The translations under genes were made by a program, and so were the position numbers. 64,000 nucleotides of DNA from an uncultured bacterium (GTDB lineage Bacteria > Patescibacteriota > Minisyncoccia > Phycocordibacterales > GWA1-40-21), in the NCBI GenBank assembly GCA_903832855.1, contig CAILDB010000014.1, positions 64,144 through 128,143 on the forward strand, written 5' to 3'. Below, piece after piece: positions 13,340 through 62,400 of this stretch; the first letter of the stretch is position 1; the number at the start of each line of letters is the position of its first letter. The notes beneath the pieces were generated by a model. That model was not told the origin of the DNA. It worked only from the letters and a program-made list of their open reading frames with translations, and ran no database searches.

Positions 13340-13499
13340 GAAAAGACCAAAAATTTTGTTAGGGATGGCGATCCTGTTCCTTTTGAAATGCCTTGGGAGG
13401 AGTGGTCTGACGACGGACAGAGAAAATTTCTAGCAAGAAATTTTCGTGCAGTTCAAAAGGAATAGGTCGACAGGACCCCGTGAAATTTTTGGTCATTTC
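13340..13499 (+). repeat. Structured hairpin element, copy 1 (core ttccttttgaaat ... atttcaaaaggaa)
   Basis: Outer 17-bp stem gaaaagaccaaaaattt/aaatttttggtcatttc; conserved inner arms shared with the copy at 61187; variable 58-nt loop with its own hairpin. Confidence 0.6.
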
Positions 13500-13559
13500 T
13501 TTTCGACGATTTTGTGCTATACTATCAGTATTATCAGCTTATTAACCTAATTAAATAAT

Positions 13560-14390
13560 ATGGAACAAAATAATCAAAATACAAATGCAGGAGAAGTATG
13601 TAATTGCAAAATGTGTCAGAAATGGGGATGGTGTCCTGCAGGTAAGGGACACAAAATAGTCACAGTTATTATATGGGTAATTGTCATTGCTTTTGTTGTT
13701 AGTTTTTTTGCTGGTGGTCATGGATACAATAAAAACAATATTCAAAAAGATACAATCACCGTTTCTGGTAAAGGTGAAGTTGTAGTGAAGCCAGATTTGG
13801 CGACAGTTTCTTTTTCTGTGACATCAGAAAGTTTGGATGTTTCAAAAGCGACAGATCAGGTTAATAAAAAAATGGCAGATGTCGTCAGTGGTTTGAAAGC
13901 CGACGGAGTGGATGAAAAAGATATTAAGACTACAGATTATAGTATTTACCCAAGATATAATTATGTAAATAACGGGACCTACACATACGGAGGTACACAG
14001 GTTTTGGCAGCATATGTCGTTACCCAAAGTATACAATTAAAAATAAGAGATTTGACGAAAGCCGGACAAATTATCACAGATTTAGGAAAGTTGAGCGTTA
14101 CAAATATGGGAGGGCTTACTTTCACTGTTGATAAGGAAGACGTTGTAAAAGTACAAGCTAGAGATTTGGCAGTACAAGATGCTAGAGCTCAAGCAAAAAT
14201 TTTGGCAAAAAGTTTGGGAGTGCGATTGGTAAAAATAACTGCTTTTTCTGAATCAGGGAATTATCCGGTTTATTATGACATGATGAGTAAATCATCTCAG
14301 GGTATGGGAGCCGCCTCGGCCCCTGCTGTGATTCCTACCGGACAGAACACCATTACTTCAAATGTGAGTATTACTTACGAAATCAGGTAG
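13560..14390 (+). CDS. SIMPL domain (DUF541) membrane-anchored protein
   Basis: N-terminal TM, then ITVSGKGEVVVKPDLATVSFSV... typical of SIMPL/BP26. Confidence 0.65.
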   Translation: MEQNNQNTNAGEVCNCKMCQKWGWCPAGKGHKIVTVIIWVIVIAFVVSFFAGGHGYNKNNIQKDTITVSGKGEVVVKPDLATVSFSVTSESLDVSKATDQVNKKMADVVSGLKADGVDEKDIKTTDYSIYPRYNYVNNGTYTYGGTQVLAAYVVTQSIQLKIRDLTKAGQIITDLGKLSVTNMGGLTFTVDKEDVVKVQARDLAVQDARAQAKILAKSLGVRLVKITAFSESGNYPVYYDMMSKSSQGMGAASAPAVIPTGQNTITSNVSITYEIR

Positions 14391-14473
14391 GCCCTTGCTT
14401 TTTGTCCCGAAGTGTACTAGTATTAAAAGACCTCGGGAACGGGGTTTTTTAATAAAAATCTTACTAAAATTTT

Positions 14474-14659
14474 ATGTCAAAAATAACAGAATATATTTTG
14501 GAAACAAAAGCAGAAATGAAGCATGTGAGCTGGCCTACCAGAAAACAAACAGTTATTTATACAATAATAATTGCGGCTGTTTCTGTTGGTATCTCCATTT
14601 ATCTCGGATTTTTTGATTACATTTTTTCAGTTGCACTTCAAAAATTTATTGGGTTTTAA
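14474..14659 (+). CDS. secE: Preprotein translocase subunit SecE
   Basis: 61 aa, single C-terminal TM; lies immediately upstream of nusG. Confidence 0.7.
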   Translation: MSKITEYILETKAEMKHVSWPTRKQTVIYTIIIAAVSVGISIYLGFFDYIFSVALQKFIGF

Positions 14660-14677
14660 TTTTTTTCACAAACAAAA

Positions 14678-15223
14678 ATGGCAAAACAAAGTATAGAAGA
14701 AGGACGAAATTGGTACGCTATTCACACCTACGCTGGGTATGAAAATGCTGTTGCCAGAAATCTAAAACAAAGAATTGAATCCTTAAACATGCAGGACAAG
14801 ATTTTTAACGTGGTTGTTCCTGTGGAAAAAACAATAAAAATTAAAGGTGCAAAAAGGGTAGAGTCAGAAGACAAAATTTATCCAGGGTACATTCTAGTAG
14901 ATATGATGGTTACAGATGATTCTTGGTTTGTTGTCCGAAATACTCCGCGTGTTACGGGGTTTGTCGGCACAGGTGTTCACCCCGTTCCTCTTTCAAAAGC
15001 CGAAGTTGATTTCTTCCTTGGCAATATGAATAGCCAGACAGTCACCCACAATGTAGATGTCGCTGTTGGAGATATCGTAAAGATTGCAGACGGACCATTC
15101 AAAGACCTTGAAGGAAGGATTGATGAAGTGGATGCAGAAAAAGGAAAAGCAAAAGTTATGGTTTTGATGTTTGGAAGAGAAACTTCAGTCGAGCTTGATC
15201 TTTTGCAAATCAGAAAGATGTAA
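14678..15223 (+). CDS. nusG: Transcription antitermination factor NusG
   Basis: NGN domain (WYAIHTYAGYENAV) and KOW motif (VGDIVKIADGPFKDLEGRI). Confidence 0.85.
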   Translation: MAKQSIEEGRNWYAIHTYAGYENAVARNLKQRIESLNMQDKIFNVVVPVEKTIKIKGAKRVESEDKIYPGYILVDMMVTDDSWFVVRNTPRVTGFVGTGVHPVPLSKAEVDFFLGNMNSQTVTHNVDVAVGDIVKIADGPFKDLEGRIDEVDAEKGKAKVMVLMFGRETSVELDLLQIRKM

Positions 15224-15282
15224 GCTTTACTTTATTGAGCTTTTCTGATACTTTAGTCAGGCCTCTAAGCAAATTATTTATC

Positions 15283-15408
15283 CCGTAGTAAATTTCAAAT
15301 CATTTTGTTTTTACAAGGGTTAAGTCAAATAAGTCGAAATTATTATTTTAATTAAGAAATTTCAAAAAGTTATTATAAGTATAAAAACAATTTGAAATTT
15401 TACTATCG
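15283..15408. repeat. 21-bp inverted repeat (atcccgtagtaaatttcaaat / atttgaaattttactatcgggat) bracketing the rplK leader
   Basis: Arms at 15283-15303 and 15386-15408; same CCCGTAGTAA family as the terminator hairpins. Confidence 0.5.
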
Positions 15409-15410
15409 GG

Positions 15411-15833
15411 ATGGCAAAGAAAATAACAAAAAAATTAAAACTTCAAATTCCCGCAGGGAAGGCGACACCAGCTCCACCTATTGGTCCAGCTCTTGGACAG
15501 GCAGGTATTAACATTGGTGATTTCGTCAATAAATTTAACACTGCAAGTAAAGACAGAATAGGAGATATTCTCCCGGTTATTATCACCGTTTATGAAGACA
15601 GAACATATGACTTCGTCCTAAAACAGCCACCAACAGCCAGCATGATTCTAAAGGCTTTAGGCATTGAAAAGGGCTCAGGTAAGCCAAATACAAGCAAAGT
15701 CGGAGTTCTCACAAAAGCCCAAGTCAAAGCCATTGCAGAGAAGAAAATGGTAGATATGAATGCCGTGGACATTGCCGGTGCAATGAAAATGGTAGAAGGT
15801 GCAGCAAGATCAATGGGGATAGATGTGAAGTAA
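15411..15833 (+). CDS. rplK: 50S ribosomal protein L11
   Basis: [22 protein letters not shown] motif. Confidence 0.9.
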
Positions 15834-15948
15834 GAAACATCTATCGGCCGGAGGTTGACGAACCGAGGCGTGCCCAGGCAACTTTTTAGCAAAAAAGTAT
15901 GCGTGGGTGGATGTCAAATAAGGCTTAAAACAAATTACAAACAAAAAA

Positions 15949-15968
15949 CCGCCTCACGGCGGTTTTTT
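15949..15968. terminator. Bidirectional intrinsic terminator
   Basis: aaaaaaccgcc-tcac-ggcggtttttt. Confidence 0.6.
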
Positions 15969-16001
15969 GTTGAAAATAATGTATAATTACAAGAACATAA
16001 A

Positions 16002-16598
16002 ATGAAAAAGGAAAAAACTTTATTAATAATCAAACCGGATGGTGTAGAGAGATCTCTTATCGGCCAGATAATAAAAAGACACGAAAGGGTTGGATTGAAA
16101 CTCGTGGCGTTGAAATTTCTCGTTCCCACTGTAGAAATGATAGAGAGTCATTACACAGTAGATCCGGAATGGCTTAGGAAAGTCGGTCAAAAAACAATTG
16201 ACGGCTACAGAGCAAAAAATATTTTGCCTCCTTCGGAAGATCCTGTAGAAAACGGTAAAAATGTTTTGAGACGACTCACAAAATATATGAAAAGCGGACC
16301 GGTCGTCGCAATGGTTTGGCAGGGGGCCCACTCTGTGGGGATTGTTAGAAAAATTGTTGGTGGAACAGAACCGCTTAATTCAGATGTCGGAACTATTAGG
16401 GGAGATTTTGTTACGGACTCGTACATAATTTCTGGAGCCGATGACAGGGCGGTAAGAAATGTTGTTCATGCATCAGGTTCTGTAGAAGAAGCAGAAAAAG
16501 AAATTAAGTTATGGTTTGGTTCGAAAGAAATTTTAAATTATCGTTTGATACAAGAAGAGGTTCTATATGATGTAAATTTGGATGGAATTTTGGAATAA
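16002..16598 (+). CDS. ndk: Nucleoside diphosphate kinase (with C-terminal extension)
   Basis: LLIIKPDGVERSLIG and NVVHASGSVEEAEKEI motifs. Confidence 0.85.
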   Translation: MKKEKTLLIIKPDGVERSLIGQIIKRHERVGLKLVALKFLVPTVEMIESHYTVDPEWLRKVGQKTIDGYRAKNILPPSEDPVENGKNVLRRLTKYMKSGPVVAMVWQGAHSVGIVRKIVGGTEPLNSDVGTIRGDFVTDSYIISGADDRAVRNVVHASGSVEEAEKEIKLWFGSKEILNYRLIQEEVLYDVNLDGILE

Positions 16599-16683
16599 AG
16601 TTTTTTATGATTCTTGACTTAGCTTTGACATCTGATAGTCTTTTCTCTAGAGAGTCGTTGTAACAAATAGAGAGGAGCTAGAG

Positions 16684-17250: not shown

Positions 17251-17259
17251 TCTTTCCCG

Positions 17260-17292: not shown

Positions 17293-17326
17293 GTATATTT
17301 TAATTTTAAAGAGTATAATTTAGTTT

Positions 17327-23827: not shown

Positions 23828-26800
23828 GTGAAACGCCAAAATTGTTCTTTTTATATCGCGGGCTTATTTTTTTTGTCTTTTTTTATACTTTTTTCTCCAT
23901 TAAATAATGTTTTTGCAGAAACTGAACTCCACGCTGGAGATGACGGACTTTATCATATCTCCACAGACACAACTTGGACAAAATCTGCTGGGCCTTATGT
24001 TATTTATAACGATGTATCAGTGGATAGTGGATCTATTTTGACTATTGAAGCAGGAACTGAAATTAAGCTCGCGGCTGGTGTTTACATTAATGTTCTTGGA
24101 AAATTGATTGCAAACGGGACGGAAAGTGAAAAAGTTTCTTTCACATCTTTAGATAGTGCTTTACCGTGGGGAGCGGTTTATGCCCTTAACGGAGGAAGCT
24201 ACGAAGTACACAATGCCGATGTATCTTATGCAGACAGCGCTTTTGGTGCTTATCATGGAAATGGTTCTCTAGATTCGGTTAGTGTTCATGACTGTAAGTA
24301 TGGTCTAGACATTACCGATGGTAATTTTGATGTAAAAAATAGCTCTTTTACAAATATGTCTCGTATTGTCGCGGATATTTACGACAATAGCCATCTCTCA
24401 TTCACATCTTCTAGTATAGAAAATCCGGGAAGGAGAGTATTTAGAGTAACTCACGGAAGCACATTAAATCTTTCTGATTTAAGTTTGGATGATGCTCACG
24501 GTGACCAAGTGTTTGAAGTTTACAGGGAAAGCTCTGTGAACGTTGATAATTTATCTGTCAAAAATTTTTACGGATATTCTGTCGCAGAAGTTTATCAAAA
24601 CAGTTTGATAAGTATTACAAATTCAACGATAGAAGATTCAACGACAGGATGGGGAGACGTGATTGAAATTTTTGACAGCAGTCATCTTACTCTCACGAAT
24701 TCTACGATAAAAAATACAATAGGGTGGTCTGCGATAAATGTCGGTGATTGCAGAGATAATTCTAGTTCAACTGTGGACATATCAGATTCGGTGATAGATG
24801 GGGGAACAGAAATGGGGGTGGCACTCATCTGTTCTGTGACGGCAAATATATCAAATACAAAAATTACAAATTTTTTGACTGCTGGGGTGGAATCTCTTAG
24901 TAATCCGGTTATAAGAATTTCGAATAGTGAAATTTCGGGGAATGATAGGGGAATAGAAAGTTATGGTGGGGATGTTGAGATCACAGACAGTATTATTAAA
25001 GATAATTTATCATACGGGATTTATAATTTAGCTTCGTATTATGATTCTTACTATGAGATTTGGGTAGAAAAATTGCCAATAAAAGCCGATGGAAACTGGT
25101 GGGGGGATAAGAGCGGGCCGTTTAATGCAACATTAAACGGCCCCGGCCTCGCAAACCCAGTATCTTCCAACGTTGAATTCTCCCCCTGGCTCAAAAGCGA
25201 CCCAAAAATAAAAAAGAAAAATCCCGTAATAATTATCCCTGGAATTATGGGCACACATATCTCGCAAAATTATGGCGACAACGAAGAACTTTGGCCGAAT
25301 GTTGGTAAACTCCTCGGTTCTTTTACGGATGAATTTTTGAATGATCTCTCATTCAACACTGACGGGACAGAAAACGCCGATTTCCCAATGACTATCGGGG
25401 ATATTGTGCGGAAAGTGGAGCTTGCAGGGCAGACCGTTACAGATACATTTGACGGATTGATTTCGACTTTGATTGCGGACGGATATACCGAAGGCACCGA
25501 CCTTTTTGTTTTTCCGTATGACTGGAGGAAAAGCGATTCTGATGATGCAGTACTTTTGAAAAGTAAAATTGATGAAGTACTCGCGCAGACAGGCGGAAGT
25601 AAGGTGGATATCATCGCTCACTCAATGGGAGGACTCATAGCCTCAAAATATGTTGCCGATAATACTGCAGAAAAAGTTGATAAATTAATTTTCATCGGCA
25701 CACCGCATCTTGGCGCACCGAAGGCATTTAAGGCACTGATGTATGGGGATGATATGGGGATAAAACTTGGAAGTTTGAGCTTTCTTCACCCTCCTGAATT
25801 AAAAAAGATCTCTCAAAATTTTCCTTCCGTTTTTGATTTATTACCAAGCCAAGCATATTCATACAAATATATTTACGATATGACGGCAACTACCAGCAAA
25901 TGGTTGGACTATGACGAGGTAAAAAATTTTATCATCAATCACGGCGGAAACGAATCCCTTTTTTCACAAGCAGAAAGTTTGCACGCAAGCACGGATACTT
26001 TTGATCTATCAGGAGCAGATGTCTACAACTTTTCCGGTTGTGGCACGACCAAAACTATTGGCAGTATGACCGTAAAAAAGAAAAAATCTTGGACATCTCT
26101 CGGCCAAAAGCTTGTAGATGACTATAGTATTGATTATGTAAACGGCGATGAGACAGTTCCTCTTGTCTCCGCAGTCGGCCCGTTTGGTGATCGCAATTAT
26201 TATGTAAAAGGTTTTAAACATTCAGAGCTTCCATCTGCAGACGGCGTTCCTGAAACTATTTTTTCTATTTTGTCTGGCGTCAGTGCCACTACGACATCAA
26301 ATATTTCCAAAAGTGATTTATTTTGTGACATTCCCGGACAAGTTGTCTCCACCCACAGTCCCGTCACATTGGATATTTACGATGACCTAGGCAATCACAC
26401 TGGCCCAGTGGATGGGGGAGATATTGAATATGGAATAGAGGGTGTAAGCTATGACATTGTTGGCACATCTGCTTTTGCATTTCTCCCAGAAGGCAGAAGT
26501 TACAGAATAGTCATTCACGCTACCGACATTGGTGCATATGATTTTTACATTACAAAGCTCGGCACAGGTGGAGGCACAGTGAGCGAAGCGTATTGGAATG
26601 AAATTCCTCTCACAACTTTGTCTACAAATTCAGAAATAAATATTTCTTCTACAAGCACCGAATATGTAATAGAAACAGACCAAGAGGGTGATGGAATTTT
26701 TGAATCAACAACCACTCCTTCATCTATACTTTCTGCCACAACGAGCGAGGATTTAATTTCTCCACAATCCACAAGCACTGTTTCAAATGGTATTGTTTCA

Positions 26801-27373
26801 CTTTCTGCCGTAGACGACAATTCTGGTATTCTAAAAATAGAATATTCTTTTGACGGAAATACTTGGAATTTATACACAAAACCATTTTCTGCATATGGCA
26901 AAACTGTCAGTTATTTTGCAACCGACAATGCCGGAAATATTGAATCATTTCAAACTATTACCATACCCAATTTGGAAGTTGCTATCTCATCTGGTGGAGG
27001 TGGTGGTCCAATAATTCAAATTCCTATCCCCTCTGTCCCTTCTGTCATTCCCGTGCAGACGGGAATCCAGTCTCCTTCCTCTTCATCTCCCTCTGTTCTC
27101 TCTGTCATTCCCGTGACCCACCCCGTGAAATCTGATTTGTATTTCACTGGGGACACGGGAATCCAGTCTTCCTCTTCTCTGTCATCCCGACGCAGGTCGG
27201 GATCCATCCCCTCTGTTGTTCATTCTGTCTTTGCGAGGAGCTCTGCGACGAAGCAATCTACTCCGATCCTCACCGCCTCCGTCATAGACTCCAGAATAAA
27301 TATCCCCTCAATAATCACAACCTTCTTCCACAATCTCTGGTCCCACATATTTTCATTCTTTAAACACTTGTGA
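23828..27373 (+). CDS. Large secreted protein: signal peptide, parallel beta-helix domain, LCAT-like alpha/beta-hydrolase (lipase/phospholipase), Ig-like domains, repeat-encoded C-terminal tail
   Basis: GTG start; signal peptide; hydrolase hallmarks PVIIIPGIMGT, FPYDWRKS (YDWR motif), GxSxG IIAHSMGG and FIGTPHLGAP; C-terminus read through the family-1/2 repeat array. Confidence 0.7.
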   Translation: MKRQNCSFYIAGLFFLSFFILFSPLNNVFAETELHAGDDGLYHISTDTTWTKSAGPYVIYNDVSVDSGSILTIEAGTEIKLAAGVYINVLGKLIANGTESEKVSFTSLDSALPWGAVYALNGGSYEVHNADVSYADSAFGAYHGNGSLDSVSVHDCKYGLDITDGNFDVKNSSFTNMSRIVADIYDNSHLSFTSSSIENPGRRVFRVTHGSTLNLSDLSLDDAHGDQVFEVYRESSVNVDNLSVKNFYGYSVAEVYQNSLISITNSTIEDSTTGWGDVIEIFDSSHLTLTNSTIKNTIGWSAINVGDCRDNSSSTVDISDSVIDGGTEMGVALICSVTANISNTKITNFLTAGVESLSNPVIRISNSEISGNDRGIESYGGDVEITDSIIKDNLSYGIYNLASYYDSYYEIWVEKLPIKADGNWWGDKSGPFNATLNGPGLANPVSSNVEFSPWLKSDPKIKKKNPVIIIPGIMGTHISQNYGDNEELWPNVGKLLGSFTDEFLNDLSFNTDGTENADFPMTIGDIVRKVELAGQTVTDTFDGLISTLIADGYTEGTDLFVFPYDWRKSDSDDAVLLKSKIDEVLAQTGGSKVDIIAHSMGGLIASKYVADNTAEKVDKLIFIGTPHLGAPKAFKALMYGDDMGIKLGSLSFLHPPELKKISQNFPSVFDLLPSQAYSYKYIYDMTATTSKWLDYDEVKNFIINHGGNESLFSQAESLHASTDTFDLSGADVYNFSGCGTTKTIGSMTVKKKKSWTSLGQKLVDDYSIDYVNGDETVPLVSAVGPFGDRNYYVKGFKHSELPSADGVPETIFSILSGVSATTTSNISKSDLFCDIPGQVVSTHSPVTLDIYDDLGNHTGPVDGGDIEYGIEGVSYDIVGTSAFAFLPEGRSYRIVIHATDIGAYDFYITKLGTGGGTVSEAYWNEIPLTTLSTNSEINISSTSTEYVIETDQEGDGIFESTTTPSSILSATTSEDLISPQSTSTVSNGIVSLSAVDDNSGILKIEYSFDGNTWNLYTKPFSAYGKTVSYFATDNAGNIESFQTITIPNLEVAISSGGGGGPIIQIPIPSVPSVIPVQTGIQSPSSSSPSVLSVIPVTHPVKSDLYFTGDTGIQSSSSLSSRRRSGSIPSVVHSVFARSSATKQSTPILTASVIDSRINIPSIITTFFHNLWSHIFSFFKHL
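27027..27270 (+). repeat. Tandem array of three family-1 units plus a partial family-2 unit forming the 3' end of the 23828 gene
   Basis: Units at 27044-27068, 27104-27164 (with nested ccccgtgaaat hairpin) and 27181-27205; gtctttgcgagg...gaagcaatc at 27227-27269. Confidence 0.75.
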
Positions 27374-28195: not shown

Positions 28196-28218
28196 CGGCC
28201 CCGCGTACTCCGCGGGGC
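28196..28218 (+). terminator. GC hairpin terminator (exact reverse complement of the 53578 hairpin)
   Basis: ggccccgcgtactccgcggggcc + tttttc. Confidence 0.55.
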
Positions 28219-28360
28219 CTTTTTCTTGGATAAAATGGGATCAGCCACCATTTTCCTGTTGCAATTCAATGTAACTCAGGTTTGTACTAGTTGTTGCCTA
28301 AATGGATATATGCTATAGTATCTCTAAGTATTCCTAAAAAGCGGAATACTTGAAGATAAT

Positions 28361-31563: not shown

Positions 31564-31638
31564 TCCCTAAAAGGAACAAAAAACAGTTTGAAATTCCAAG
31601 CTGTTTTTTGTTACATTTTGTGCTACCATTTAAGAAAT

Positions 31639-32742
31639 ATGGCAAACAAAAATCTTACAAACGCCAAAAAAGCAAAGAATGACGAGTTTTATACTCAGTA
31701 TTCTGATATTCAAAAAGAGATTGCAGCATATTTAGAATACAACCCAGATGTATTTCGCAACAAGGTAGTGTATTGCAATTGCGACGATCCTTTTGAGAGC
31801 AATTTCTTTCGCTATTTTGTGCTTAATTTCAACAAGCTTGGATTGAAACAACTTATCACTACCAGCTACAAACCCTCGCCCGTAGCGAACACACAACTGG
31901 GTTTGTTTGGTGATGATAAAACTCTTTCAAAATCAAAAGGCCGTCCAAAAGTAACCGCGAATAAATTTATTATAAATGAAGTTCGTGACATAGACGGCGA
32001 AGGCGAGTTCAACTTGAAGGATGTTGCAATGCAATTAAAGACAAACAAACACAATGAATGGACACCTCTTGAGAAAGAGGGCGATTTTAAAAGTCCTGAG
32101 TGCGTAAAATTACTGGAGCAATCCGACATAGTGGTAACTAATCCGCCGTTCAGTCTAACTCACGAATATGTTAAGCAACTTTTTGATTATAATAAAAAAT
32201 TTGTAATTATCATTAATAAAAGTGCTGTAACATATAAAGAAATTTTCCCATTGATTAGAGACAATAAAATGTGGTCTGGAAAAACAGGATGGTCCGGTGG
32301 TTTATGGTTTGTAACAATGGATGTCGATGATGTAGATAAGGTGATTGGTGGTGTTAATATGAAAAATACAGCTTCTGCTTGGTTTACAAATCTAGACCAT
32401 GGAAGACGCCATCAACCAATTCCACTTATGACAATGAAGGAAAATTTAAAATACAGCAAGCACAAAGAAATTAAAGGCAAAAAAGCGTATGATAAATATG
32501 TAAATTACGAGGCTATAGAAGTGCCGTTTACTGATGCCATTCCAAGCGATTATGATGGTACAATGGGTGTGCCAATTAGTTTTCTGGATAAATATAATCC
32601 TGAACAGTTTGAAATTATTGGAATGGCAGAAGATAATGGCAAAGGTTTTTCTGGTGGAATTTGGGATGGTAAAAATCCACATTGTGTTATAAATGGAGAG
32701 AATAAATTTAAGAGAATATTTATAAGACATAAGAAGAGATAG
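31639..32742 (+). CDS. Site-specific DNA methyltransferase (gamma-class N6-adenine); may start at TTG 31588
   Basis: DEFYTQ (HsdM-like motif) and VVTNPPFSL (motif IV NPPF). Confidence 0.7.
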   Translation: MANKNLTNAKKAKNDEFYTQYSDIQKEIAAYLEYNPDVFRNKVVYCNCDDPFESNFFRYFVLNFNKLGLKQLITTSYKPSPVANTQLGLFGDDKTLSKSKGRPKVTANKFIINEVRDIDGEGEFNLKDVAMQLKTNKHNEWTPLEKEGDFKSPECVKLLEQSDIVVTNPPFSLTHEYVKQLFDYNKKFVIIINKSAVTYKEIFPLIRDNKMWSGKTGWSGGLWFVTMDVDDVDKVIGGVNMKNTASAWFTNLDHGRRHQPIPLMTMKENLKYSKHKEIKGKKAYDKYVNYEAIEVPFTDAIPSDYDGTMGVPISFLDKYNPEQFEIIGMAEDNGKGFSGGIWDGKNPHCVINGENKFKRIFIRHKKR

Positions 32743-32743
32743 T

Positions 32744-33532
32744 ATGAAAAAAATAAATGTAATTACTCAAGATAAAGATAAAGATTTTATAAAAACTTTT
32801 CTAGAAAAAGAGAAAATTAATTTTGAAATTTTTGACGAAGTTGAATATAGTAATTCAAATAAATTTTCAGATGAAATTAAAAATAACGACCTGAATTTTT
32901 TGAAGAAGGGTAATTTTAATGCTCAAATTTTTCAGTCAGTTGACGAAAATATTTCCACGAGACTTCTAATTCCTAATAGTTCTTCAGATAAGAAGGATTG
33001 GCAAAAAGAGTACGACCTTTATCACGAATTGGGGCATTATTATTCAATGGAAAAAGATTTAATATGTAAATATTATAGTTTTTTAGAAAATAATGCTGTT
33101 TTAAAGGGTGAATTATTTAATCTTCCTTTTGAAGTTGAAGCAGAAAAATATGTATTTGAAAAATATAAAGAATTTTTTGAAAAAAATGCAAATGAAGTTT
33201 ATTTAAAATATTTGAGTCAAATAGGTAATCAACTTTGCTTAATAAACGAGGAAACGATTAAAAATCATAGTAATTTTTATGGAATTTATGAAATAAGGTT
33301 GTTTAGATATAACTGTATTATTGAAAATATTTGTGATAATCAATGTGAATTTTACAAAAAACACAAGAATAATATTAATGAGATTAAAAATAGATTAGAA
33401 AGCAAGGGAAAATTATTTTTTGAAATAAATAAAAAGGTTGATGTATTAGACAACTCGCTAAAAGAAGATTTTTATAAAAATAATGATTTTGAAAAATATT
33501 CAAGTGAATGTAAATTAATTTATGAAAAATAA
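32744..33532 (+). CDS. Hypothetical protein with HExxH motif (putative metallopeptidase-like), very AT-rich
   Basis: YHELGHYYS; translationally coupled to the MTase (2-nt gap). Confidence 0.35.
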   Translation: MKKINVITQDKDKDFIKTFLEKEKINFEIFDEVEYSNSNKFSDEIKNNDLNFLKKGNFNAQIFQSVDENISTRLLIPNSSSDKKDWQKEYDLYHELGHYYSMEKDLICKYYSFLENNAVLKGELFNLPFEVEAEKYVFEKYKEFFEKNANEVYLKYLSQIGNQLCLINEETIKNHSNFYGIYEIRLFRYNCIIENICDNQCEFYKKHKNNINEIKNRLESKGKLFFEINKKVDVLDNSLKEDFYKNNDFEKYSSECKLIYEK

Positions 33533-33557
33533 AAATTAATAAATAAAAAGAAATATT

Positions 33558-36638: not shown

Positions 36639-36687
36639 GGACGACGAGGTGGGGAGGGTTTTGGGAAAAGAGGGGAAAAGATAAGAT

Positions 36688-36714
36688 GGATTCCGTTCTT
36701 CAACGGAATGACAG
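36688..36714 (-). repeat. Family-1 palindromic repeat unit, intergenic
   Basis: ggattccgttcttcaacggaatgacag, identical to the unit inside argS. Confidence 0.75.
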
Positions 36715-36883
36715 AAAAAAGCGTGAATTTGGGCTGTTTTAAGACCAAATTCACGCTAAATCAGGTTTAAATAAGGTTTTAAATGCGGAATTGCAAGATA
36801 GTGCACTTTACTTACACTAATAGTAACTAAGTGTTAAGATAGTTACTATTGAAGTTGGTAATATTAACTAACTTACAAAAATT

Positions 36884-43400: not shown

Positions 43401-45164
43401 ATGATAGAGAAAGTACTGGAAAATTTAATAAAAAAAGCATTGGAGTCGCTTGGAATTGAGGGAGCGGAAACTTTGAATGTGAGTTTGGAACATCCAGAGG
43501 TGATGGCTCATGGAGATTATTCTACAAATGTTGCGATGGTGCTGGCGAAAAAGATGGGGGAAAATCCGAGGGAGCTGGCGGGGAAGATTAAAGAGGAGAT
43601 GGATTCCGTTCTTCAACGGAATGACAGAGGGGAAAATATGATAGAGAAAATTGAAGTTGCAGGGCCGGGGTTTATTAATTTTTATTTAGCGAAAAAAGTT
43701 TTTGAAAATGGGGTGGGGGAGATTTTGAAGGATGGTAATCAATATGGTCGTAATAATATTTTAGATGGTCAGAGAACAATTATTGACTACACTGACCCAA
43801 ATCCGTTTAAGGATTTTCATATTGGGCACTTAATGAGTAATGCAATTGGCGAGTCACTTTCAAGAATAATGGAGGCGAACGGAGCTATCGTAAAAAGGGC
43901 CAATTATCAAGGCGATGTGGGTATTCATGTTGCTAAAGCAATCTGGGGTGCATTTAAAATGCTTAACGAGTCAGAGTGCAAGAAAGCATTTTTTGGGGGT
44001 TGGTTTGGTCTTGGAAAAAATTCAAAAATTTGGGGACAGGCGTATACTTTAGGTGCGATAGCTTTTGAAACAGATGAAAATGCAAAAAAGGAAATAACTA
44101 ATCTGAATAAGAAGATTTACGATCGTTCGGATGGAAAAATAAATAAACTTTATGATATTGGGAGAAAAACATCCCTAGAATATTTTGAAAAGATTTATAA
44201 AATTCTTGGCACAAAATTTGACTACTATTTTTTTGAAAGCGAAGTGGATGATTTAGGGAAGGCGATTGTGCTTGAGGCTATGGCGAAGGGTTATTTTGAA
44301 AAAAGCGATGGGGCGGTAATTTTCCGAGGGGAGAAATATGATCCGCTTTTGCATACTCGGGTTTTTATTAGTTCCCAGGGATTACCAACATATGAGGCAA
44401 AAGAAATTGGTTTAACAAAAGAAAAATATCGCCGATTTGCTTTTGATAAAACAATTGCTGTTACAGGAAACGAAATTAACGATTATTACAGAGTAGTCAA
44501 AAAAGCGATGGAATTTACTATACCTGATTTGGCTTCTAAAGTGGTGCATATTGGTCATGGAATGTTGCGACTACCTTCTGGTAAAATGTCATCTCGAACA
44601 GGACAGGTAATTACGGGTGAGTCATTGCTTACCGAAATACAAAAAAATATTTTGGAAAAAATGAGAGATCGAATGATGTCAAAAAAAGAAAAAACGCAAA
44701 TAGCAGAAATCGTGGCGGTGGGAGCATTGAAATATTCCATTTTGAAACAAGCTGCCGGTGGGGATATTATTTTTGATTTTGACAAGTCAATTTCTTTTGA
44801 GGGGGATTCTGGACCATATTTGCAATATTCATATGTTCGTGCAAAATCTGTTTTGGAAAAAGCAAAAGATGAAAATGTAAAAGCAAAAATAAACAAAGGT
44901 GATTCTGACGGAAGTGTTTTGGAAAAAATGCTTTTGAGATTTACGGAAGTGGTGGAAAGGGCGGGAAGGGAATACTCGCCACATTATCTTGCGATTTATC
45001 TGACTGAACTTGCATCTGCATTCAGCACTTTTTATGCAGAAGGAAAAATTGTGGACAAAACCGACGCAAAATCTCCTTACAAAATTGCTCTTACGCAAGC
45101 TTTTTCTGTCGTGATGAAAAGCGGATTGAATCTTTTGGGGATAAAGGTGCCCGAAAAAATGTAG
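43401..45164 (+). CDS. argS: Arginyl-tRNA synthetase (with 9-aa in-frame repeat insertion)
   Basis: FHIGHLMSNAIGESL (HIGH) and GKMSSRTG (KMSK-like); AGPGFINFYL; insertion MDSVLQRND from the family-1 unit. Confidence 0.9.
   Translation: MIEKVLENLIKKALESLGIEGAETLNVSLEHPEVMAHGDYSTNVAMVLAKKMGENPRELAGKIKEEMDSVLQRNDRGENMIEKIEVAGPGFINFYLAKKVFENGVGEILKDGNQYGRNNILDGQRTIIDYTDPNPFKDFHIGHLMSNAIGESLSRIMEANGAIVKRANYQGDVGIHVAKAIWGAFKMLNESECKKAFFGGWFGLGKNSKIWGQAYTLGAIAFETDENAKKEITNLNKKIYDRSDGKINKLYDIGRKTSLEYFEKIYKILGTKFDYYFFESEVDDLGKAIVLEAMAKGYFEKSDGAVIFRGEKYDPLLHTRVFISSQGLPTYEAKEIGLTKEKYRRFAFDKTIAVTGNEINDYYRVVKKAMEFTIPDLASKVVHIGHGMLRLPSGKMSSRTGQVITGESLLTEIQKNILEKMRDRMMSKKEKTQIAEIVAVGALKYSILKQAAGGDIIFDFDKSISFEGDSGPYLQYSYVRAKSVLEKAKDENVKAKINKGDSDGSVLEKMLLRFTEVVERAGREYSPHYLAIYLTELASAFSTFYAEGKIVDKTDAKSPYKIALTQAFSVVMKSGLNLLGIKVPEKM
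43601..43627 (-). repeat. Family-1 palindromic unit in-frame in argS
   Basis: ggattccgttcttcaacggaatgacag. Confidence 0.8.
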
Positions 45165-53577: not shown

Positions 53578-53600
53578 GGCCCCGCGGAGTACGCGGGGCC
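53578..53600 (+). terminator. GC hairpin terminator (reverse complement of the 28196 hairpin)
   Basis: ggccccgcggagtacgcggggcc + ttttctttt. Confidence 0.6.
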
Positions 53601-53634
53601 TTTTCTTTTCTCCCTTTTTTAGTATGATACCCAT

Positions 53635-55951: not shown

Positions 55952-55989
55952 TCCCAGTAGTAAAGAAATCAGAATTTCTTACTACGGGA
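55952..55989 (-). terminator. CCCCGTAGTAA hairpin family (inverted copy) directly after the ssb stop
   Basis: tcccagtagtaaagaaatcagaatttcttactacggga. Confidence 0.55.
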
Positions 55990-56211: not shown

Positions 56212-56221
56212 TATTAAATTA

Positions 56222-56258
56222 AAACTGCCCCGCAAATCAGATTTGCGGGGCAGTTTTA
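56222..56258 (+). terminator. Intrinsic terminator after rpsR
   Basis: aaaactgccccgcaaatcagatttgcggggcagtttt. Confidence 0.7.
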
Positions 56259-56304
56259 ATTGTGATAAAATACTACTACATTTATCAATTTAATTAAAAT
56301 AAAA

Positions 56305-57345
56305 ATGGCGAAAAAATTTGGAAAGGATGTGAAGGAAAAAGAAGTAAAAGCGACTCCAGCAGAATCAAAAGATAGTAAAATAGAAGATACTTTAAATGCA
56401 ATCAAAGCAAAATTTGGTGACGAATCCATAATGATGCTTGGCGAGAAGCCACATGTGGATGTAAACGCCATTTCCACTGGTTCTATCGGGCTTGATGCTG
56501 CACTTGGTGTGGGCGGACTTCCTCGTGGTAGAATAATTGAAATTTTTGGCCCAGAATCATCAGGTAAGACGACTTTGGCTCTTCATGTAGTTGCTGAAGC
56601 ACAGAAGCTCGGTGGAATTTGCGCTTACATAGATGCTGAACATGCGATGGATCCTGAATATGCTAAAAAGCTCGGCGTAAAAGTAGATCAACTTTTAATC
56701 TCTCAGCCAGATACAGGCGAGCAAGGTTTGGAAATTACTGATAGTTTGGTGCGTTCAGGAAAAATGGATGTGATTGTCATTGACTCTGTCGCAGCTCTTA
56801 CTCCAAAAGATGAAATAGAAGGCGATATGGGTGCGTATCATGTGGGTAAACAAGCTCGCCTTATGTCTCAAGCCCTCAGAAAGCTCACCGCAATTGTTGC
56901 AAAATCAAAAACAATTGTTATTTTTATAAACCAAATCAGAATGCAAATCGGTGTGATGTTTGGAAATCCAGAGACAACTCCGGGCGGAAAGGCACTCAAG
57001 TTTTACACATCAGTTCGTCTAGATATTCGTAGAATTGCACAAATTAAAAAAGGTGAAGAGATAATGGGAGGACGCGTGAGAGTAAAAGTTGTCAAAAATA
57101 AAGTTGCTGCACCTTTCAAACAAACAGAATTTGATTTGATGTATAACGAGGGAATTTCAAGGGAAGGCGAGCTCATTGCTCTTGGAGAAACACACGGAAT
57201 TCTAAAAAAATCCGGAAATTCTTATGAATATGGTGAAGTGAAACTTGGTCGCGGATACGACGCTACCCGCCAATTCTTACGCGAAAATCCAAAAATTTCA
57301 GGTGAAATTTTGAAAGAGATTAAGGCGAAGTTGAAGGAGATTTAA
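56305..57345 (+). CDS. recA: Recombinase RecA
   Basis: [38 protein letters not shown] (Walker A); L2 loop. Confidence 0.95.
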
Positions 57346-57565
57346 AAAAAGAAAAAAGAAACGAGCCGGTGTTGTCATATTTTTGCGTCCGCAGGCGAGC
57401 TTGCAAGGCGCGATGTGGTGTAATTTTGTCGAAAGTATTCTTGAGACAAAACTATACCACAGCGCAAGCCGCCGAGGATTAGGAAATTTTCCGGCTGGGG
57501 AAAATTTCTGCACAAAAATATGACAATACTGGCGAGTTTTTTCTTTTTTTAAATCTCTTATCAGT

Positions 57566-58132: not shown

Positions 58133-58188
58133 AGTGGACTGATTCTATACAAAAATTCCTCATTTGTCTATCGCTCCACTTAGCCGAC

Positions 58189-58400
58189 AAGAAGGAAACT
58201 CCTCTTTTTACGGTTAGCGAAGCAGTATTAGAAAATAAGAAGTTTTTTAGAAAAACGAGACTGTTTGACGAGTCCGCGAGGAGTTTCGAGTTTTTCGCCC
58301 GCTAAGACACACTTTCCCAAGTGTGCGAGCGGGAAAAGAAAAACTACTATATTTTCTATACCGCGTAGCGCTTGAAGTAAAAAGAGGAGTTTCCTTCTTG
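58189..58400. mobile_element. 212-nt element bounded by perfect 24-bp terminal inverted repeats (MITE-like or large structured RNA)
   Basis: caagaaggaaactcctctttttac at 58189-58212 and its exact reverse complement at 58377-58400; 164-nt internal region with additional hairpins. Confidence 0.5.
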
Positions 58401-58409
58401 CCGGCGTCC

Positions 58410-58775: not shown

Positions 58776-58777
58776 TT

Positions 58778-61066
58778 TTATAGATTATCTATTTTTTCTT
58801 CTTCGATTTGCTCGGCACTACCGCCACCTTCGACGGTTTCTTCAAAATCGGTTTCTGAATTACCATCTGTCGCACCTATTACTTCTCTCGCTCTTGAACC
58901 ATCTGCTGGGCCTATCACACCTCTGTCCTCGAGCATATCCATCAGTCGCGCGGCTCTGGCATATCCTACGCGGAGTTTCCTTTGTATGTATGAAGTGGAT
59001 GCTTTCCCCGCACCTTTTACGATTTCTTTTGCTTCTTCATAAAGTGCGTCATCATCACCTCCATCACCCTCATTTTCAAATGTTGCATCAAAAATATTAT
59101 TTCTGTCTGTTGCAGTCTCGGTAAGAGAAATAATTTCCGGAAGCTCATCCTGATAAGAAGTAGCCAAATATTTTGATACAGCTTTTACTTCGCTCTCAGT
59201 AATGTATGCGGACTGAATTCTCACAGGTTTGGACATTTCTCCACCAATGTAAAGCATATCTCCAGCGCCAAGGAGTTTTTCTGCACCCATTGTATCAAGA
59301 ATAGTTCGAGAATCAATTTGAGAAACAACTTGAAGGGCAATTCTTGCAGGAATGTTGGCTTTGATAAGCCCCGTGATAACATTTACTGAAGGCCTTTGTG
59401 TGGAAAGTATTAAATGAATTCCCACGGCTCTGCTCATCTGTGCGAGGCGAACAATTCCGCTTTCTAGTTCGCGAGGGTATGCCATCATAATATCTGCGAG
59501 TTCGTCTACAACAATTACGATAAACGGCATCAATTCCGGGATTTTATTTATTTCCGGATCATATCGTCTTTGTTTTTTGAGTTCCTCAATCTTTTTTAAT
59601 TCCGGTTCAAGGATATTTTTGTGATATGAATCGATGTCTTTGACGGCATGTGTTTCCAAAATATCATATCTTCGATCCATTTCTTTGGTACACCATTTGA
59701 GTGCGAGAATAGTTTTCTTTGCGTCTGTGATAACTGGAGTGAGAAGGTGGGGAATTTTGTTGTAAAGTGTAAGCTCAACTCTTTTCGGATCTATCATTAT
59801 GAATTTCAGGCTCAAAGGAGAATTTTTGTAGAGCAGGGAAGTAATAATAGTATGAATGGTGACAGACTTTCCAGAACCAGTAGCACCAGCGATAAGCATG
59901 TGGGGCATTTTTGCTATGTTTGCAAATTGTAATTTTCCGGAAATTCCTTTACCAAGCGAAACGAGAAGTGGTTTATCTGAATTTTGAAATTCCTCCGAGC
60001 CAACGAGAGAACCAAGTCCTACGATTGATTTAATAGTGTTTGGAATTTCAATACCTACGAGAGACTTACCTGGAATCGGGGCTTCTATACGGAGCGGGTG
60101 AGCTGCGAGTGCAAGTGAAAGATCGTTTTGAAGGCCGAGAATACTTGCAACCTTTACACCTTCTGCAGGCTTTAAAGCATATCTGGTAACGGATGGTCCG
60201 ACAGAAACTTCATCCATTTCCACATCAATACCAAAGTTTTGCAAAGTTCTTTTGATAATATTTGCATTTGCTTTGATGTCACCTACACCCGGCTTACCTT
60301 TGTCATTTGAAAGCAGAGAAATAGGTGGGGGAGTGTAAGTACCTATTGAAGATTGTTTGTCTGAGAATTTGAGTTCTTCGTATTCATCTGGCTTTTTGAT
60401 ACTTATATCTTTTTGGACTCTTTTTGAGGATATTCCACTATCACCCTCAGCTTTCTTTTCATCTTTGTTTATTTTTTCTTCAATCTTCTCAATGTCAGAA
60501 TCATCGTCTTCTTCCTCTTCTTCGTCTTCCTTTTTTTTGCTCCAGCGTCTCCAGAAGAATATCGTATCAACAGTGAATTTTGTTTCAAAAAGTATGAGGA
60601 CAGAAATTATTAAAATGGCGATGAGTATGATGATGGTGGCAGGGAAGCCAAAAAGTTTGAGAAGTGGAATAGAAATAAACTTTCCCAAAAGTCCGCCCTT
60701 TGCAATTTCAAAATATGTTCTGGAGACTGAATCTATGATACCAAGAGAGGAAACAAAAAAAAGTATACCACCAAAAACTTTTAGCTTATTTAAAATTCTT
60801 TCTTCTGCTTTCAAAAAAGAAATACTCAATAGTAAAAATAAAAGAGGGATGAGAAAGTATCCTACGCCAAATAAAAAGTATAAACTTGTGTAAGTTTTTT
60901 CACCCACGATGCCGGCTTTTTCAAGCGGGGCCAAAGAAAAAAGTATTGCAAGGACAAAAAATAATATTGCAAAAATGCCTTGCTTAGTTGTACTTTTCAT
61001 CCCTGAGAGAACTCCTTCTTTGCTTTCTTTTTTAGAATTCTTTTTTGATGATTTAAAATCTTTCAT
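58778..61066 (-). CDS. ftsK: DNA translocase FtsK/SpoIIIE
   Basis: N-terminal TM domain, acidic linker, motor domain with Walker A IAGATGSGKS, gamma domain SYIQRKLRVGYARAARLMDMLEDRGVIG. Confidence 0.9.
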   Translation of the reverse strand: MKDFKSSKKNSKKESKEGVLSGMKSTTKQGIFAILFFVLAILFSLAPLEKAGIVGEKTYTSLYFLFGVGYFLIPLLFLLLSISFLKAEERILNKLKVFGGILFFVSSLGIIDSVSRTYFEIAKGGLLGKFISIPLLKLFGFPATIIILIAILIISVLILFETKFTVDTIFFWRRWSKKKEDEEEEEDDDSDIEKIEEKINKDEKKAEGDSGISSKRVQKDISIKKPDEYEELKFSDKQSSIGTYTPPPISLLSNDKGKPGVGDIKANANIIKRTLQNFGIDVEMDEVSVGPSVTRYALKPAEGVKVASILGLQNDLSLALAAHPLRIEAPIPGKSLVGIEIPNTIKSIVGLGSLVGSEEFQNSDKPLLVSLGKGISGKLQFANIAKMPHMLIAGATGSGKSVTIHTIITSLLYKNSPLSLKFIMIDPKRVELTLYNKIPHLLTPVITDAKKTILALKWCTKEMDRRYDILETHAVKDIDSYHKNILEPELKKIEELKKQRRYDPEINKIPELMPFIVIVVDELADIMMAYPRELESGIVRLAQMSRAVGIHLILSTQRPSVNVITGLIKANIPARIALQVVSQIDSRTILDTMGAEKLLGAGDMLYIGGEMSKPVRIQSAYITESEVKAVSKYLATSYQDELPEIISLTETATDRNNIFDATFENEGDGGDDDALYEEAKEIVKGAGKASTSYIQRKLRVGYARAARLMDMLEDRGVIGPADGSRAREVIGATDGNSETDFEETVEGGGSAEQIEEEKIDNL

Positions 61067-61186
61067 AGCACTATTATATCACCCTGTAGTAGAATTTGCC
61101 ATCAAAAATTTTAAGAAAATTTTTAAAAAATAATGGCAAATTTCACTACGGGGTATCAAATTTTTATAATATAAAAAAGTTTAAAA

Positions 61187-61357
61187 GCAAGAGCCGAAAA
61201 TTAAAATTTCACGGGGTCCTGTCGACCTATTCCTTTTGAAATACGCACATAAAATCCTGCTGGATTTTTGTTATGCTCGGCCCAGTCGGCCTGCGCAATG
61301 TATTTCAAAAGGAACAGGATCGCCACCCCTAGCAAAATTTTAATTTTCGGCTCTTGC
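61187..61357 (-). repeat. Structured hairpin element, copy 2 (inverted relative to the 13340 copy)
   Basis: Perfect 23-bp outer stem gcaagagccgaaaattaaaattt/aaattttaattttcggctcttgc; conserved inner arms identical to copy 1 (ttcaaaaggaataggtcgacaggaccccgtgaaattt); different loop with its own hairpin. Confidence 0.6.
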
Positions 61358-61523
61358 TTTTTGCTTATAAATGTTTCCGATTGTTATTGCAGTGCTTTAC
61401 AACTTTACTGTCCGATATATAATGGACACAAAAGTTCTTCGTCCTTGATAAATTTGTATAAGACAAAATAAAAGACAGGATTCTATCTCAAGGACTCTCA
61501 GTAAAAGACATAACACTATAAAT

Positions 61524-62294
61524 ATGGACGAAAAAACAAATGTTTCAAAATTTGGTCAAATAAAAACAGCAGAAAACAGCCATACGGCTCATAGTATTCA
61601 GCATATCGTCTTTCATGGCGATAATATCGGTTTTTTCATATTTAAAAAGACAGAAAGGATTGTTTCTGCCCTATATATTATTAGTAGTTTTTTGTCTGAT
61701 ACAGCGCCGGCTAGAATTTCTATTAGAGACATCGCTAATAATCTTTTGAGGGATACTCTGGAACTGTCCAATAGGCATTTAAACGAAGACAAAAAACTAA
61801 TCATTGTTATAAAGGGGTTTGCAAATATCTCCATACTTATTAACGCAATTTCTGATGTTGGTGAAATGTCAAAAATGAATGCAGAAATCCTTCTGGAAGA
61901 GATAGAAAAGATAACAGAGATTTTGTTAAAGACATGGTCAAATAAGAACCTAGGCAGTAAGCTTTTTGACTCCTCTTTTTTTGAAATTAATACCGAAGAG
62001 GGCGCTGGTTATAATCAAAAGGACATAAAGGACAGCATAAAAGACAATGTCCTTTATAAAAATACATCTATAAAATCATCTGGACAAACCGGTTCTATAA
62101 AAGACAAAAATAGTAGACAGGATATGATAATATCAATGCTTAAAAAGGATAAAGTTCTAACTATCAAGGACTTTTCAAAAAATATAAAGGGCTGTAGCGA
62201 AAAGACAATTCAAAGGGAGCTTATAAATCTTATGTCAAAAGGTGTCTTAAAGAAAGAAGGGGAAAGGAGGTGGAGTAAGTATTCATTGGTATAA
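61524..62294 (+). CDS. Hypothetical protein with C-terminal winged-HTH-like segment
   Basis: ORF; C-terminal TIKDFSKNIKGCSEKTIQRELINLMSKGVLKK. Confidence 0.35.
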   Translation: MDEKTNVSKFGQIKTAENSHTAHSIQHIVFHGDNIGFFIFKKTERIVSALYIISSFLSDTAPARISIRDIANNLLRDTLELSNRHLNEDKKLIIVIKGFANISILINAISDVGEMSKMNAEILLEEIEKITEILLKTWSNKNLGSKLFDSSFFEINTEEGAGYNQKDIKDSIKDNVLYKNTSIKSSGQTGSIKDKNSRQDMIISMLKKDKVLTIKDFSKNIKGCSEKTIQRELINLMSKGVLKKEGERRWSKYSLV

Positions 62295-62300
62295 GGTCTG

Positions 62301-62400
62301 AATCCCAGCAGAAAGTCCTTTTGAACTGCACGGATATTTTTTTGCTAAAAAATTCCTCGTGCTCGCGCCGTCGCGCTCCCAAGTCAGTTCAAAAGGACTT
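62301..62400. repeat. Perfect 28-bp inverted repeat hairpin with 44-nt loop (core tccttttgaactg / cagttcaaaagga), related to the 13340 and 61187 elements
   Basis: aatcccagcagaaagtccttttgaactg ... cagttcaaaaggactttctgctgggatt. Confidence 0.6.

Follow-up and report, generated by a model that had tools for sequence, protein, structure and literature searches.

A family of long intergenic hairpins with a conserved three-way-junction core in a Patescibacteria contig and its relatives

Intergenic hairpins in the window

The genomes of the Patescibacteria (candidate phyla radiation, CPR) are tiny, at ∼1 Mb, and leave very little room for non-coding DNA; to our knowledge almost nothing is known about the non-coding RNAs (ncRNAs) and repeats of these bacteria. 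The DNA analysed here for a family of long, structured intergenic hairpins, referred to as the window, is a stretch of 64,000 nucleotides (nt) from an uncultured Paceibacteria-type bacterium of this group (assembly GCA_903832855.1, contig CAILDB010000014.1, positions 64,144 to 128,143, forward strand), whose genome is present in ERZ1426xxx, ERZ273135xx and Hainich samples; positions given without a locus name are those of the window. An earlier note on this DNA had drawn attention to three such hairpins, here E1, E2 and E3. Repeats within the window were compared, covariance models were applied (R1, built from 21 MAFFT-aligned copies and a hand-drawn structure, and R2, a broader model), and the folding of each hairpin as RNA was scored against shuffled versions (fold z-score). 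The window holds at least four copies of the family:

13338–13501, + strand: E1, a full hairpin (repeat comparison, R1, fold z-score)
15837–15914, + strand: E4, a member without the long stem (repeat match, then R1 and R2)
61183–61361, − strand (the family strand): E2, a full hairpin (repeat comparison, R1, fold z-score)
62301–62412, − strand: E3, a perfect 28-bp stem, 62301–62328 / 62385–62412, closing a core (repeat comparison, R1, fold z-score)

E1 begins 41 nt past the stop codon of a gene for a PF10672 (RlmI-like) methyltransferase, E2 occupies the spacer between ftsK and a divergent gene for a protein of 256 amino acids (aa), and E3 starts 7 nt past the stop codon of that + strand gene (24 nt for the core box), so that the intergenic placement given in the earlier note holds for all three. 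The core of E3 is antisense to the 256-aa gene because E3 lies on the − strand and the gene on the + strand. The protein, which had been labelled a helix-turn-helix protein, has no Pfam match. Promoter-like sites lie on either side of E2, for ftsK at 61102–61073 (−) and for the 256-aa gene at 61396–61423 (+). E4, which had been overlooked, starts 4 nt past the rplK stop codon on the sense strand, with the operon terminator downstream at ∼15943–15969.

The outer stem of E1 (13338–13356 / 13483–13501) is 19 nt long with 95% identity, and that of E2 (61183–61209 / 61335–61361) is 27 bp long, perfect, and flanked by an A-run and a T-run; the earlier note had given 17 and 23 bp, both perfect. E1 carries a conserved, imperfect arm module (13350–13489), here termed A-type, and the arms of E2 are of the same type: as had been noticed, near-identical arms recur in the two elements in inverted orientation, with 91% identity over 46 nt and 100% over 38 nt. 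The core of E1 spans 13374–13465, with the P1 box at 13378–13387 / 13452–13461, P2 at ∼13405–13418 and P3 at 13422–13445 with an AGCA loop (13432–13435). The core of E2 (61227–61317) is of a GCGCAG/UAG subtype. That of E3 (62312–62401) is of a GGGAG/CACGAG subtype and is closed by the 28-bp stem, which is perfect as first described, although the element ends at 62412 rather than 62400. R1 scored E1 at 74 bits on the + strand versus 19.8 on the −, E2 at 95.5 on the − versus 23.4 on the +, and E3 at 92.3 on the − versus 26.8 on the +; the fold z-scores were −7.2, −14.0 and −11.5, respectively. E4 consists of a 6-bp P1 (ACAUCU/GGAUGU), CGGCCGGAG, P2 (GUU-GACG-AAC), CGAGG and P3 with an AGCA loop. 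It was left out of the building of both models, and scored 24.4 bits with R1 and 32.8 bits (E = 5e-5) with R2.

E1, E2 and E3 all fit the pattern TCCTTTTGAA-N62/63-TTCAAAAGGA, which had 0 matches in 100 shuffles. The 10-mer P1 box occurs eight times in the window, six of them within the elements; such a small number, mostly element-internal, ruled out a reading of the box as a DNA uptake sequence.

Beyond E3, ∼630 nt (62420–63050) without an open reading frame (ORF) of ≥62 aa separate it from a gene for a 1306-aa PG_binding_1 protein that starts at 63050. This gap has no Rfam match and holds a terminator-like site at 62507–62487 on the − strand.

A conserved three-way junction with compensatory change

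Read on one strand (+ for E1, − for E2 and E3), the centres of the three hairpins have an identical order of parts. A P1 helix that carries the box CUUUUGAA/UUCAAAAG is followed by a joint YUUG(G/C)G(C)AG, a short P2 with a GNNG-type loop, (C)GAG, and a bulged P3 with an AGCA loop that leads back to P1. The central loops, previously taken to be unrelated in sequence, are in fact homologous two-hairpin junctions that share joint and loop nucleotides.

Further copies were sought by one pattern scan each of genome and metagenome contigs, both of which required the P1 box, so that copy counts are lower bounds. Pattern scans and covariance model together gave at least 35 copies at E ≤ 1e-6, all on one strand; the search for more copies suggested in the earlier note was thus productive both in the window (E4) and beyond it. 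With R1, family strands score 46–102 bits and opposite strands about 20–27 bits. Most pattern-scan matches are chance matches in unrelated phyla, and these were reused as a negative control for R1: in 634 kb of mostly unrelated loci no non-family sequence scored above 25.2 bits, and such scores came from P1 alone and did not differ between the strands. R1 also recovered copies with a variant box that lie out of reach of the pattern, at 1854–1943 of locus L204, where the box is altered to GUUUCUAAAG/CUUAGAAAC with pairing maintained, and at 1945–2035 of L057, and it found five further copies in relatives obtained via L11 homologs. Among the matches listed, the labelled genome records are Patescibacteria, Minisyncoccia or Parcubacteria metagenome-assembled genomes (MAGs) and two records of an 'uncultured bacterium', whilst the other junction-bearing matches listed are unlabelled metagenome contigs; the nearest L11 homologs are labelled Paceibacterota/Pacebacteria. 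Fifteen pattern matches in viral contigs were rejected as chance, the palindrome extension and the junction being absent in all of them, and BLAST searches of phages and plasmids gave no match. In L131, two members lie in inverted orientation at 6252–6341 (+) and 7499–7607 (−), on either side of one 375-aa gene, and the second has a 19-nt hairpin inserted in a junction strand.

Outside P1, more than 20 of the 35 copies have a GA-type internal loop (GCGA-helix-GAGC or GGA/GUA), the flanking pairs of which covary. The A-type arms (E1, E2, L057, L215, L227 and L255) share an asymmetric loop UGG / ACRGG instead; A-type copies open with AAAATTTT-N-TAGGGG and close with CCCCG-N-AAATTTT. A near-identical E3-type core is found within A-type arms in L057, L215 and L227.

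Pairing in the core was examined in two alignments. In the MAFFT seed alignment (A2), 91.7% of cells pair and double changes occur in 22 of the 29 pairs. In the covariance-model alignment (A4), whose 29 distinct sequences are related to each other and were fitted to the structure model, 96.7% of cells pair and 26 of the 29 pairs show double changes. Pairing in A4 falls to 39–54% with slid partners, and the covariation score of 0.81 compares with 0.08–0.17 when partners are slid by 1–3 columns and was reached in 0 of 500 shuffles. P3 is 98.8% paired with covariation in all nine of its pairs, and in the helices G·U outnumbers A·C by 16 to 5, a modest sign that the modelled strand is the folding one. 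In the covariation test proposed in the earlier note, pairing of the core is kept by compensatory change on one defined strand, and the tip of the element is a conserved three-way junction maintained by compensatory mutations in many related genomes. Sequence change with kept pairing reflects a selected single-strand structure, not neutral repeats. The earlier note had reached the same view from supposed compensatory change in the outer stems, but the evidence lies in P1, P2 and P3, where covariation is demonstrable, that is, in the so-called loops; since the outer stems are not alignable between copies, compensatory change is not demonstrable for them. The core is under single-strand selection, probably as RNA.

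Compensatory change can be imitated by hairpin-templated repair (quasipalindrome correction), by which ordinary terminators or palindromes would stay paired with the core unselected. The perfect, locus-specific outer stems, up to 27–54 bp long and at terminator positions, would suit such a process. It leaves unexplained the conserved unpaired nucleotides of joints and loops (UUG.G..AG, CGAG, AGCA and the GA loops), the fixed order of P2 then P3 on one strand across distant genomes and the bias of G·U over A·C, and we consider it highly improbable.

The hairpin family is previously undescribed. Rfam 15 at gathering thresholds, applied to the whole window, gave no match to the hairpins, and its 4227 models at E ≤ 10 gave only chance microRNA and small nucleolar RNA matches in both element regions. 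In literature searches no CPR/Patescibacteria repeat or RNA motif of this kind was found described.

One further hairpin of the window, also overlooked before, was considered for membership:

57337–57557, + strand: H57, a 221-nt hairpin between the convergent recA and efp genes, a probable distant relative (inspection and position)

H57 runs from an outer stem through a CGAG/CGAG loop, P1 (CAUAUUUUUG/CAAAAAUAUG), CGCAG, a long P2 and CGAG-GAUUAG to P3 with a GGCU loop. At the efp 3′ end, L057 (1945–2035, 60 bits) and L134 hold a clear family member, and the orientation to efp is alike in the window, L057 and L134, the EF-P protein of L134 being only 54% identical to that of the window. By inspection and position H57 is thus a probable member; neither R1 nor R2 recovered it or a second large hairpin nearby, H58. 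The perfect 21-bp outer stem of H57 (57337–57357 / 57537–57557) spans the last codons and stops of both convergent genes, and recA and efp both end in GAGATTTAA. H58 (58183–58405), a 223-nt hairpin with a 29-bp stem (97%), lies between efp and a 121-aa gene and has a multibranched interior with several CGAG strings; at its position L057 has a cold-shock-like gene and plain terminators instead.

Position, turnover and possible role

Most copies lie 4–60 nt from the 3′ end of a gene, with orientations to that gene divided about 50/50; of the six copies in L255 and L257, four run antisense to a cluster of co-directional genes. The outer stems, which are particular to their loci, have the form of terminator hairpins; those of E2, L057a and L227 contain GC pairs and have A/T runs on both sides. 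One spacer of the window holds a simpler structure:

56217–56261, bidirectional, no strand assigned: a plain 22-bp terminator in the S18–recA spacer (inverted-repeat comparison)

In the syntenic L057 this spacer holds an A-type element (∼3485–3640) in place of the plain terminator of the window, so that element and plain terminator are interchangeable at one orthologous site. The whole hairpin can plausibly end transcripts or protect 3′ ends in either orientation.

Other hairpins also recur in the window. Three loci (9474–9500, 28197–28223 and 53578–53604) use one terminator-like hairpin, GGCCCCGCG-N-CGCGGGGCCTTTT. A 36-nt hairpin, CCCGTAGTAAGAAATTCTGATTTCTTTACTACTGGG, occurs twice, identical and in inverted orientation, at 10385–10420 and 55953–55988, 45 kb apart, and a related hairpin, CCCTGTAGTAG...CACTACGGGG, at 61081–61154 adjoins the ftsK promoter-like site.

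Copy number varies between relatives, from at least four in the 64-kb window to three in 20 kb each for L255 and L257 and none in L254 or in the 20 kb of L259. The E1 site is filled by an A-type copy (+) in the window and by a different subtype (−) in L255 and L257; in L254, with 85% nt identity to the window, it holds just an 8-bp hairpin. E4 is shared by the window and L257, whose versions differ by compensatory changes in P1 and P2; L254, L255 and L259 lack it and retain only the terminator. E1 and E2 have the same arms with different cores, and two copies in L257 have the same cores with different arms. Cores and arms therefore reassort, and copies are gained, lost and exchanged at orthologous sites. 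Orthologous copies of L255 and L257 differ by compensatory arm changes, and contigs from other assemblies terminate within E1.

Three observations accompany these comparisons. The hairpin at the E1-orthologous site of L254 (509–545; TAACCCCC...GGGGGTTA) has a 21-nt loop containing CTTTTGAAATG, the left P1 box of E1, and could be a deletion scar or the seed of an element. In L257, E4 is expanded to ∼300 nt (10461–10760) and contains additional hairpins as well as two internal stems of the CCUUUUGA...CCAAAAGG type; with the rplK terminator on one side and another terminator on the other, it resembles a separate RNA gene. Finally, in most contigs ftsK precedes the gene for the identical 256-aa protein, but in one 100-kb contig (sample ERZ1426720) greA and an AspRS-like gene do, a change of gene order that places a rearrangement breakpoint within the E2-bearing spacer (window 61066–61524).

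Presence/absence polymorphism and assembly breaks of this kind, in short, AT-rich, multicopy elements with long inverted arms, are what might be expected of a plain miniature inverted-repeat transposable element (MITE), the arms being the terminal inverted repeats (TIRs) of a cut-and-paste transposon relic and the pairing having no function as RNA or as a single strand; in L215 the two arms changed in parallel, which would also be in line with co-evolution of TIRs and transposase. The earlier note had named target-site duplications with conserved TIRs as the mark of such an element. No direct target duplications were found at E1, E2, L057, L215 or L227: the flanks are inverted, not direct, repeats. 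When three possible boundaries were searched, direct repeats of ≥3 nt were found at 3 of 35 traced boundaries, and two of the three were the GA motif itself. The best-conserved part is moreover internal, not terminal, and the termini (the outer stems) differ in every copy; arms and outer stems vary between copies of one genome, and E4 is armless. The free covariation of P2 and P3 sequence cannot be accounted for by TIR–protein recognition, and the gene lists of the loci examined contain no related transposase. A plain MITE is quite improbable.

The strongest rival is a multicopy family of independently transcribed, trans-acting small RNAs (sRNAs) of ∼90–170 nt, whose junction and GA motifs would bind a cellular protein as a ribonucleoprotein (RNP) or protein sponge. 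Transcription of each would start from a promoter of its own, in A-type copies the A-rich AAAAT immediately before UAGGGG, and end at its own terminator, formed by the closing stem with AAAUUUU. It would account for the strand-specific core with its strong covariation and conserved unpaired nucleotides, for the two GA-type internal-loop motifs, for the independence of copy orientation from flanking genes and for the L257 version of E4, placed between two terminators as a separate transcription unit. The A-type arms, near-identical in genomes whose proteins are only 80–94% identical, and the shared start and end of A-type copies point the same way. A conserved −35/−10 pair was, however, not found, and promoter-like matches are near background (24 versus 16.3 ± 3.9 in shuffled sequence). 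The copies are also dispensable, L254 having neither E1 nor E4 and L259 no copy in 20 kb, and the variation of outer stems and arm types by copy, with reassorting modules, is unusual for a conserved RNP RNA. We regard sRNAs as a real possibility, though an unlikely one.

Alternatively, the structure could be read on single-stranded DNA (ssDNA), as hairpins resembling repetitive extragenic palindromes (REP), REPINs or IS200/IS605 ends that a recombinase, Y1/HUH or of another kind, recognises on the template of the lagging strand, or as attC-like sites. Intergenic, 3′-end-proximal positions in both orientations, imperfect hairpins with conserved loops and bulges, tolerance of G·T and not of A·C, the mobile-looking distribution with rearrangement and assembly breakpoints at elements, and the absence of target-site duplication, as for REP elements, are all consistent with this. 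Against it, no RAYT, TnpA or integrase gene was seen in ∼200 kb of Patescibacteria loci with Pfam calls, the GTAG-type REP signature and the R′/R″ attC boxes are both absent, the element is much larger and more branched than known REPs, and E4 lies within a transcribed 3′ untranslated region (UTR). We therefore judge the ssDNA reading improbable. Integron attC sites in particular were rejected, as RYYYAAC...GTTRRRY boxes are absent from the ends, orientations are mixed, and the adjoining genes are housekeeping genes without an integrase among them. Inspection also dismissed a hammerhead (a CUGANGA-like string in E1 is not conserved in other copies) and a CsrA sponge, signal recognition particle Alu domain, group II domain V and tmRNA, all of which show partial resemblance with a misfit in element order or consensus.

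On inspection, part of the core resembles the sites of ribosomal protein L1 (GGGAG-GCU...AGC-CGA). GGAG-helix-CGAG might then mimic the L1 site (23S helix 77 and the L1 mRNA operator), with E4, which directly follows rplK, as an L1 operator and the other copies as decoys. An L1 operator takes the form of a small hairpin whose internal bulge has a G-A pair, and in several phyla it is located between rplK and rplA (PMC3616713). The bulge also has an unpaired A, and the operator would be expected before rplK or rplA in an L1-encoding genome. In the window the ORF after rplK is ndk, and rplA is not downstream of rplK in the window and four relatives; E4 is dispensable, and dozens of decoy sites would be odd. 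We give this mimicry scarcely any credence. The region 14678–16598 and L254, L255, L257 and L259 share the order secE-nusG-rplK, then ndk or a dCMP deaminase and nucleotide-metabolism genes, without rplA, rplJ or rplL. This order without rplA fits a report that L1 is absent from a subgroup of Parcubacteria (10.1101/2022.01.07.475337).

The explanation we favour, with moderate confidence, is that E1–E4 are modular structured interspersed repeats of Paceibacteria/Minisyncoccia-type Patescibacteria that occupy terminator positions and are REP/BIME (bacterial interspersed mosaic element)-, ERIC-, BOX- or Correia-like in kind. A copy consists of up to three nested layers: an outer stem particular to its locus, commonly between A/T runs and at the position expected of an intrinsic terminator; an optional arm module with conserved internal loops, either the tandem G·A type (GCGA-helix-GAGC) or the imperfect A-type; and the conserved core, in which P1 with its box closes the three-way junction. 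Transcribed either way, the hairpin would serve as or replace a bidirectional terminator and 3′-end barrier, and cells would tolerate it because of that function. The strand-specific core would be kept through recognition by a protein on a single strand, most likely RNA and possibly ssDNA exposed by replication, such recognition serving spread, recombination or another role. Recognition as RNA is favoured by the location of E4 in a 3′ UTR, the G·U excess and the GA motifs, and an RNA role of the family appears likely. The functional RNA proposed in the earlier note is borne out in that the structure is selected, but the elements also behave as repeats that move or recombine. Hairpin tips would receive new copies through insertion or gene conversion, not through cut-and-paste transposition.

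Several points weigh against interspersed repeats in terminator positions. The deeply conserved joint and loop nucleotides, the two GA-type motifs and the copies that are stable at orthologous sites suit a dedicated functional RNA at least as well as a selfish repeat. None of the loci read contains a transposase, recombinase or RAYT-like gene, and the mobile unit is delimited by neither a target-site duplication nor a clean empty site, so that mobility is inferred from distribution only. By script tracing, few copies have a canonical U-tract directly after the traced stem part, and a consensus terminator scanner makes no call on the long hairpins. E2, between two divergent promoter-like sites, may escape its neighbours' transcription. 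The copies counted are a lower bound and are skewed to box-bearing ones.

A more radical version, to which we give a small but real chance, would make the core a new autonomous module. Its three-way junction and tandem-GA loops would bind a Patescibacteria protein, and it would nest into hairpin tips (core into arm module into terminator) without its own transposase or target duplication, a mobile RNA or ssDNA element that builds long terminator hairpins in minimal genomes.

An element of 90–220 nt that recurs and takes up a noticeable part of the space between genes is probably not inert. Covariation shows its junction to be conserved over many lineages, and the element marks rearrangement and assembly breakpoints. 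As RNA, it would constitute a new motif class, with ∼35 seed sequences for an Rfam-style model and protein pull-downs; as a mobile hairpin without transposase or target duplication, it would represent an undescribed mode of spreading. The model accounts for the fragmentation of Paceibacteria assemblies at element sites, and can be used for annotating hairpins in MAGs.

The window holds further features. A second, unrelated repeat family consists of short GC-rich palindromes (TGTCATTCC-N7-9-GGAATGACA / GGATTCC...GGAATCC) at 7538–7601, 27029–27115, 27175–27206, 36677–36716, 40861–40899 and 43590–43633, several copies lying within long ORFs (23828–27373, 40306–41733 and 43401–45164). At 8304–8742 a 217-nt unit is present in two tandem copies, 87% identical with a spacing of 222 nt, inside an ORF (7819–9186) that is called a Flg_new-repeat protein in other assemblies. 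A small defence-type cluster at 31588–34721 encodes an EcoRI-like adenine methyltransferase (PF13651), a 262-aa ORF without a Pfam match and a protein with GmrSD_N and HNH domains.

Comparison with known repeats and RNA families

Intrinsic bidirectional terminators resemble the family in lying just after stop codons and between convergent genes. Their stems are 5–14 bp and their loops 3–8 nt, whereas the 'loop' here is a conserved, structured module of 60–140 nt, several copies have no U-tract and one copy lies between divergent promoters. The orphan ncRNA motifs (HEARO, ROOL, raiA and the sets of Weinberg et al. 2010/2017) are likewise supported by covariation, have conserved junction nucleotides and come mainly from uncultured lineages, and some are multicopy by riding on mobile elements; they are without the module swapping and nested hairpins of the present family.

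REP/BIME and REPIN sequences of Enterobacteria and Pseudomonas are, like the family here, dispersed multicopy imperfect palindromes in intergenic DNA near 3′ ends, in both orientations; they too are mosaic or modular, fold in single-stranded form, are free of target-site duplications and can influence termination or the stability of mRNA. REPs are, however, only ∼35 nt long, carry a GTAG-type signature and are linked to RAYT, whilst the present elements measure 90–220 nt and have a three-way-junction core and GA-motif loops. They also belong to another phylum, and no RAYT was seen in the loci read, complete genomes not being among them.

ERIC/IRU (enterobacterial repetitive intergenic consensus/intergenic repeat units), the BOX elements of pneumococcus and Correia/NEMIS are likewise structured repeats of 100–170 nt in transcribed intergenic regions, highly conserved between species at differing loci, with no transposase of their own known. 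They share no sequence similarity with the family here, which has no Rfam match. ERIC and Correia insert at TA with duplication and have conserved termini, in contrast to the variable termini, conserved interior and absence of duplication seen here. ERIC, BOX and Correia are known to affect RNA processing and termination, and BOX is built of modules (boxA-B-C), as is the present family.

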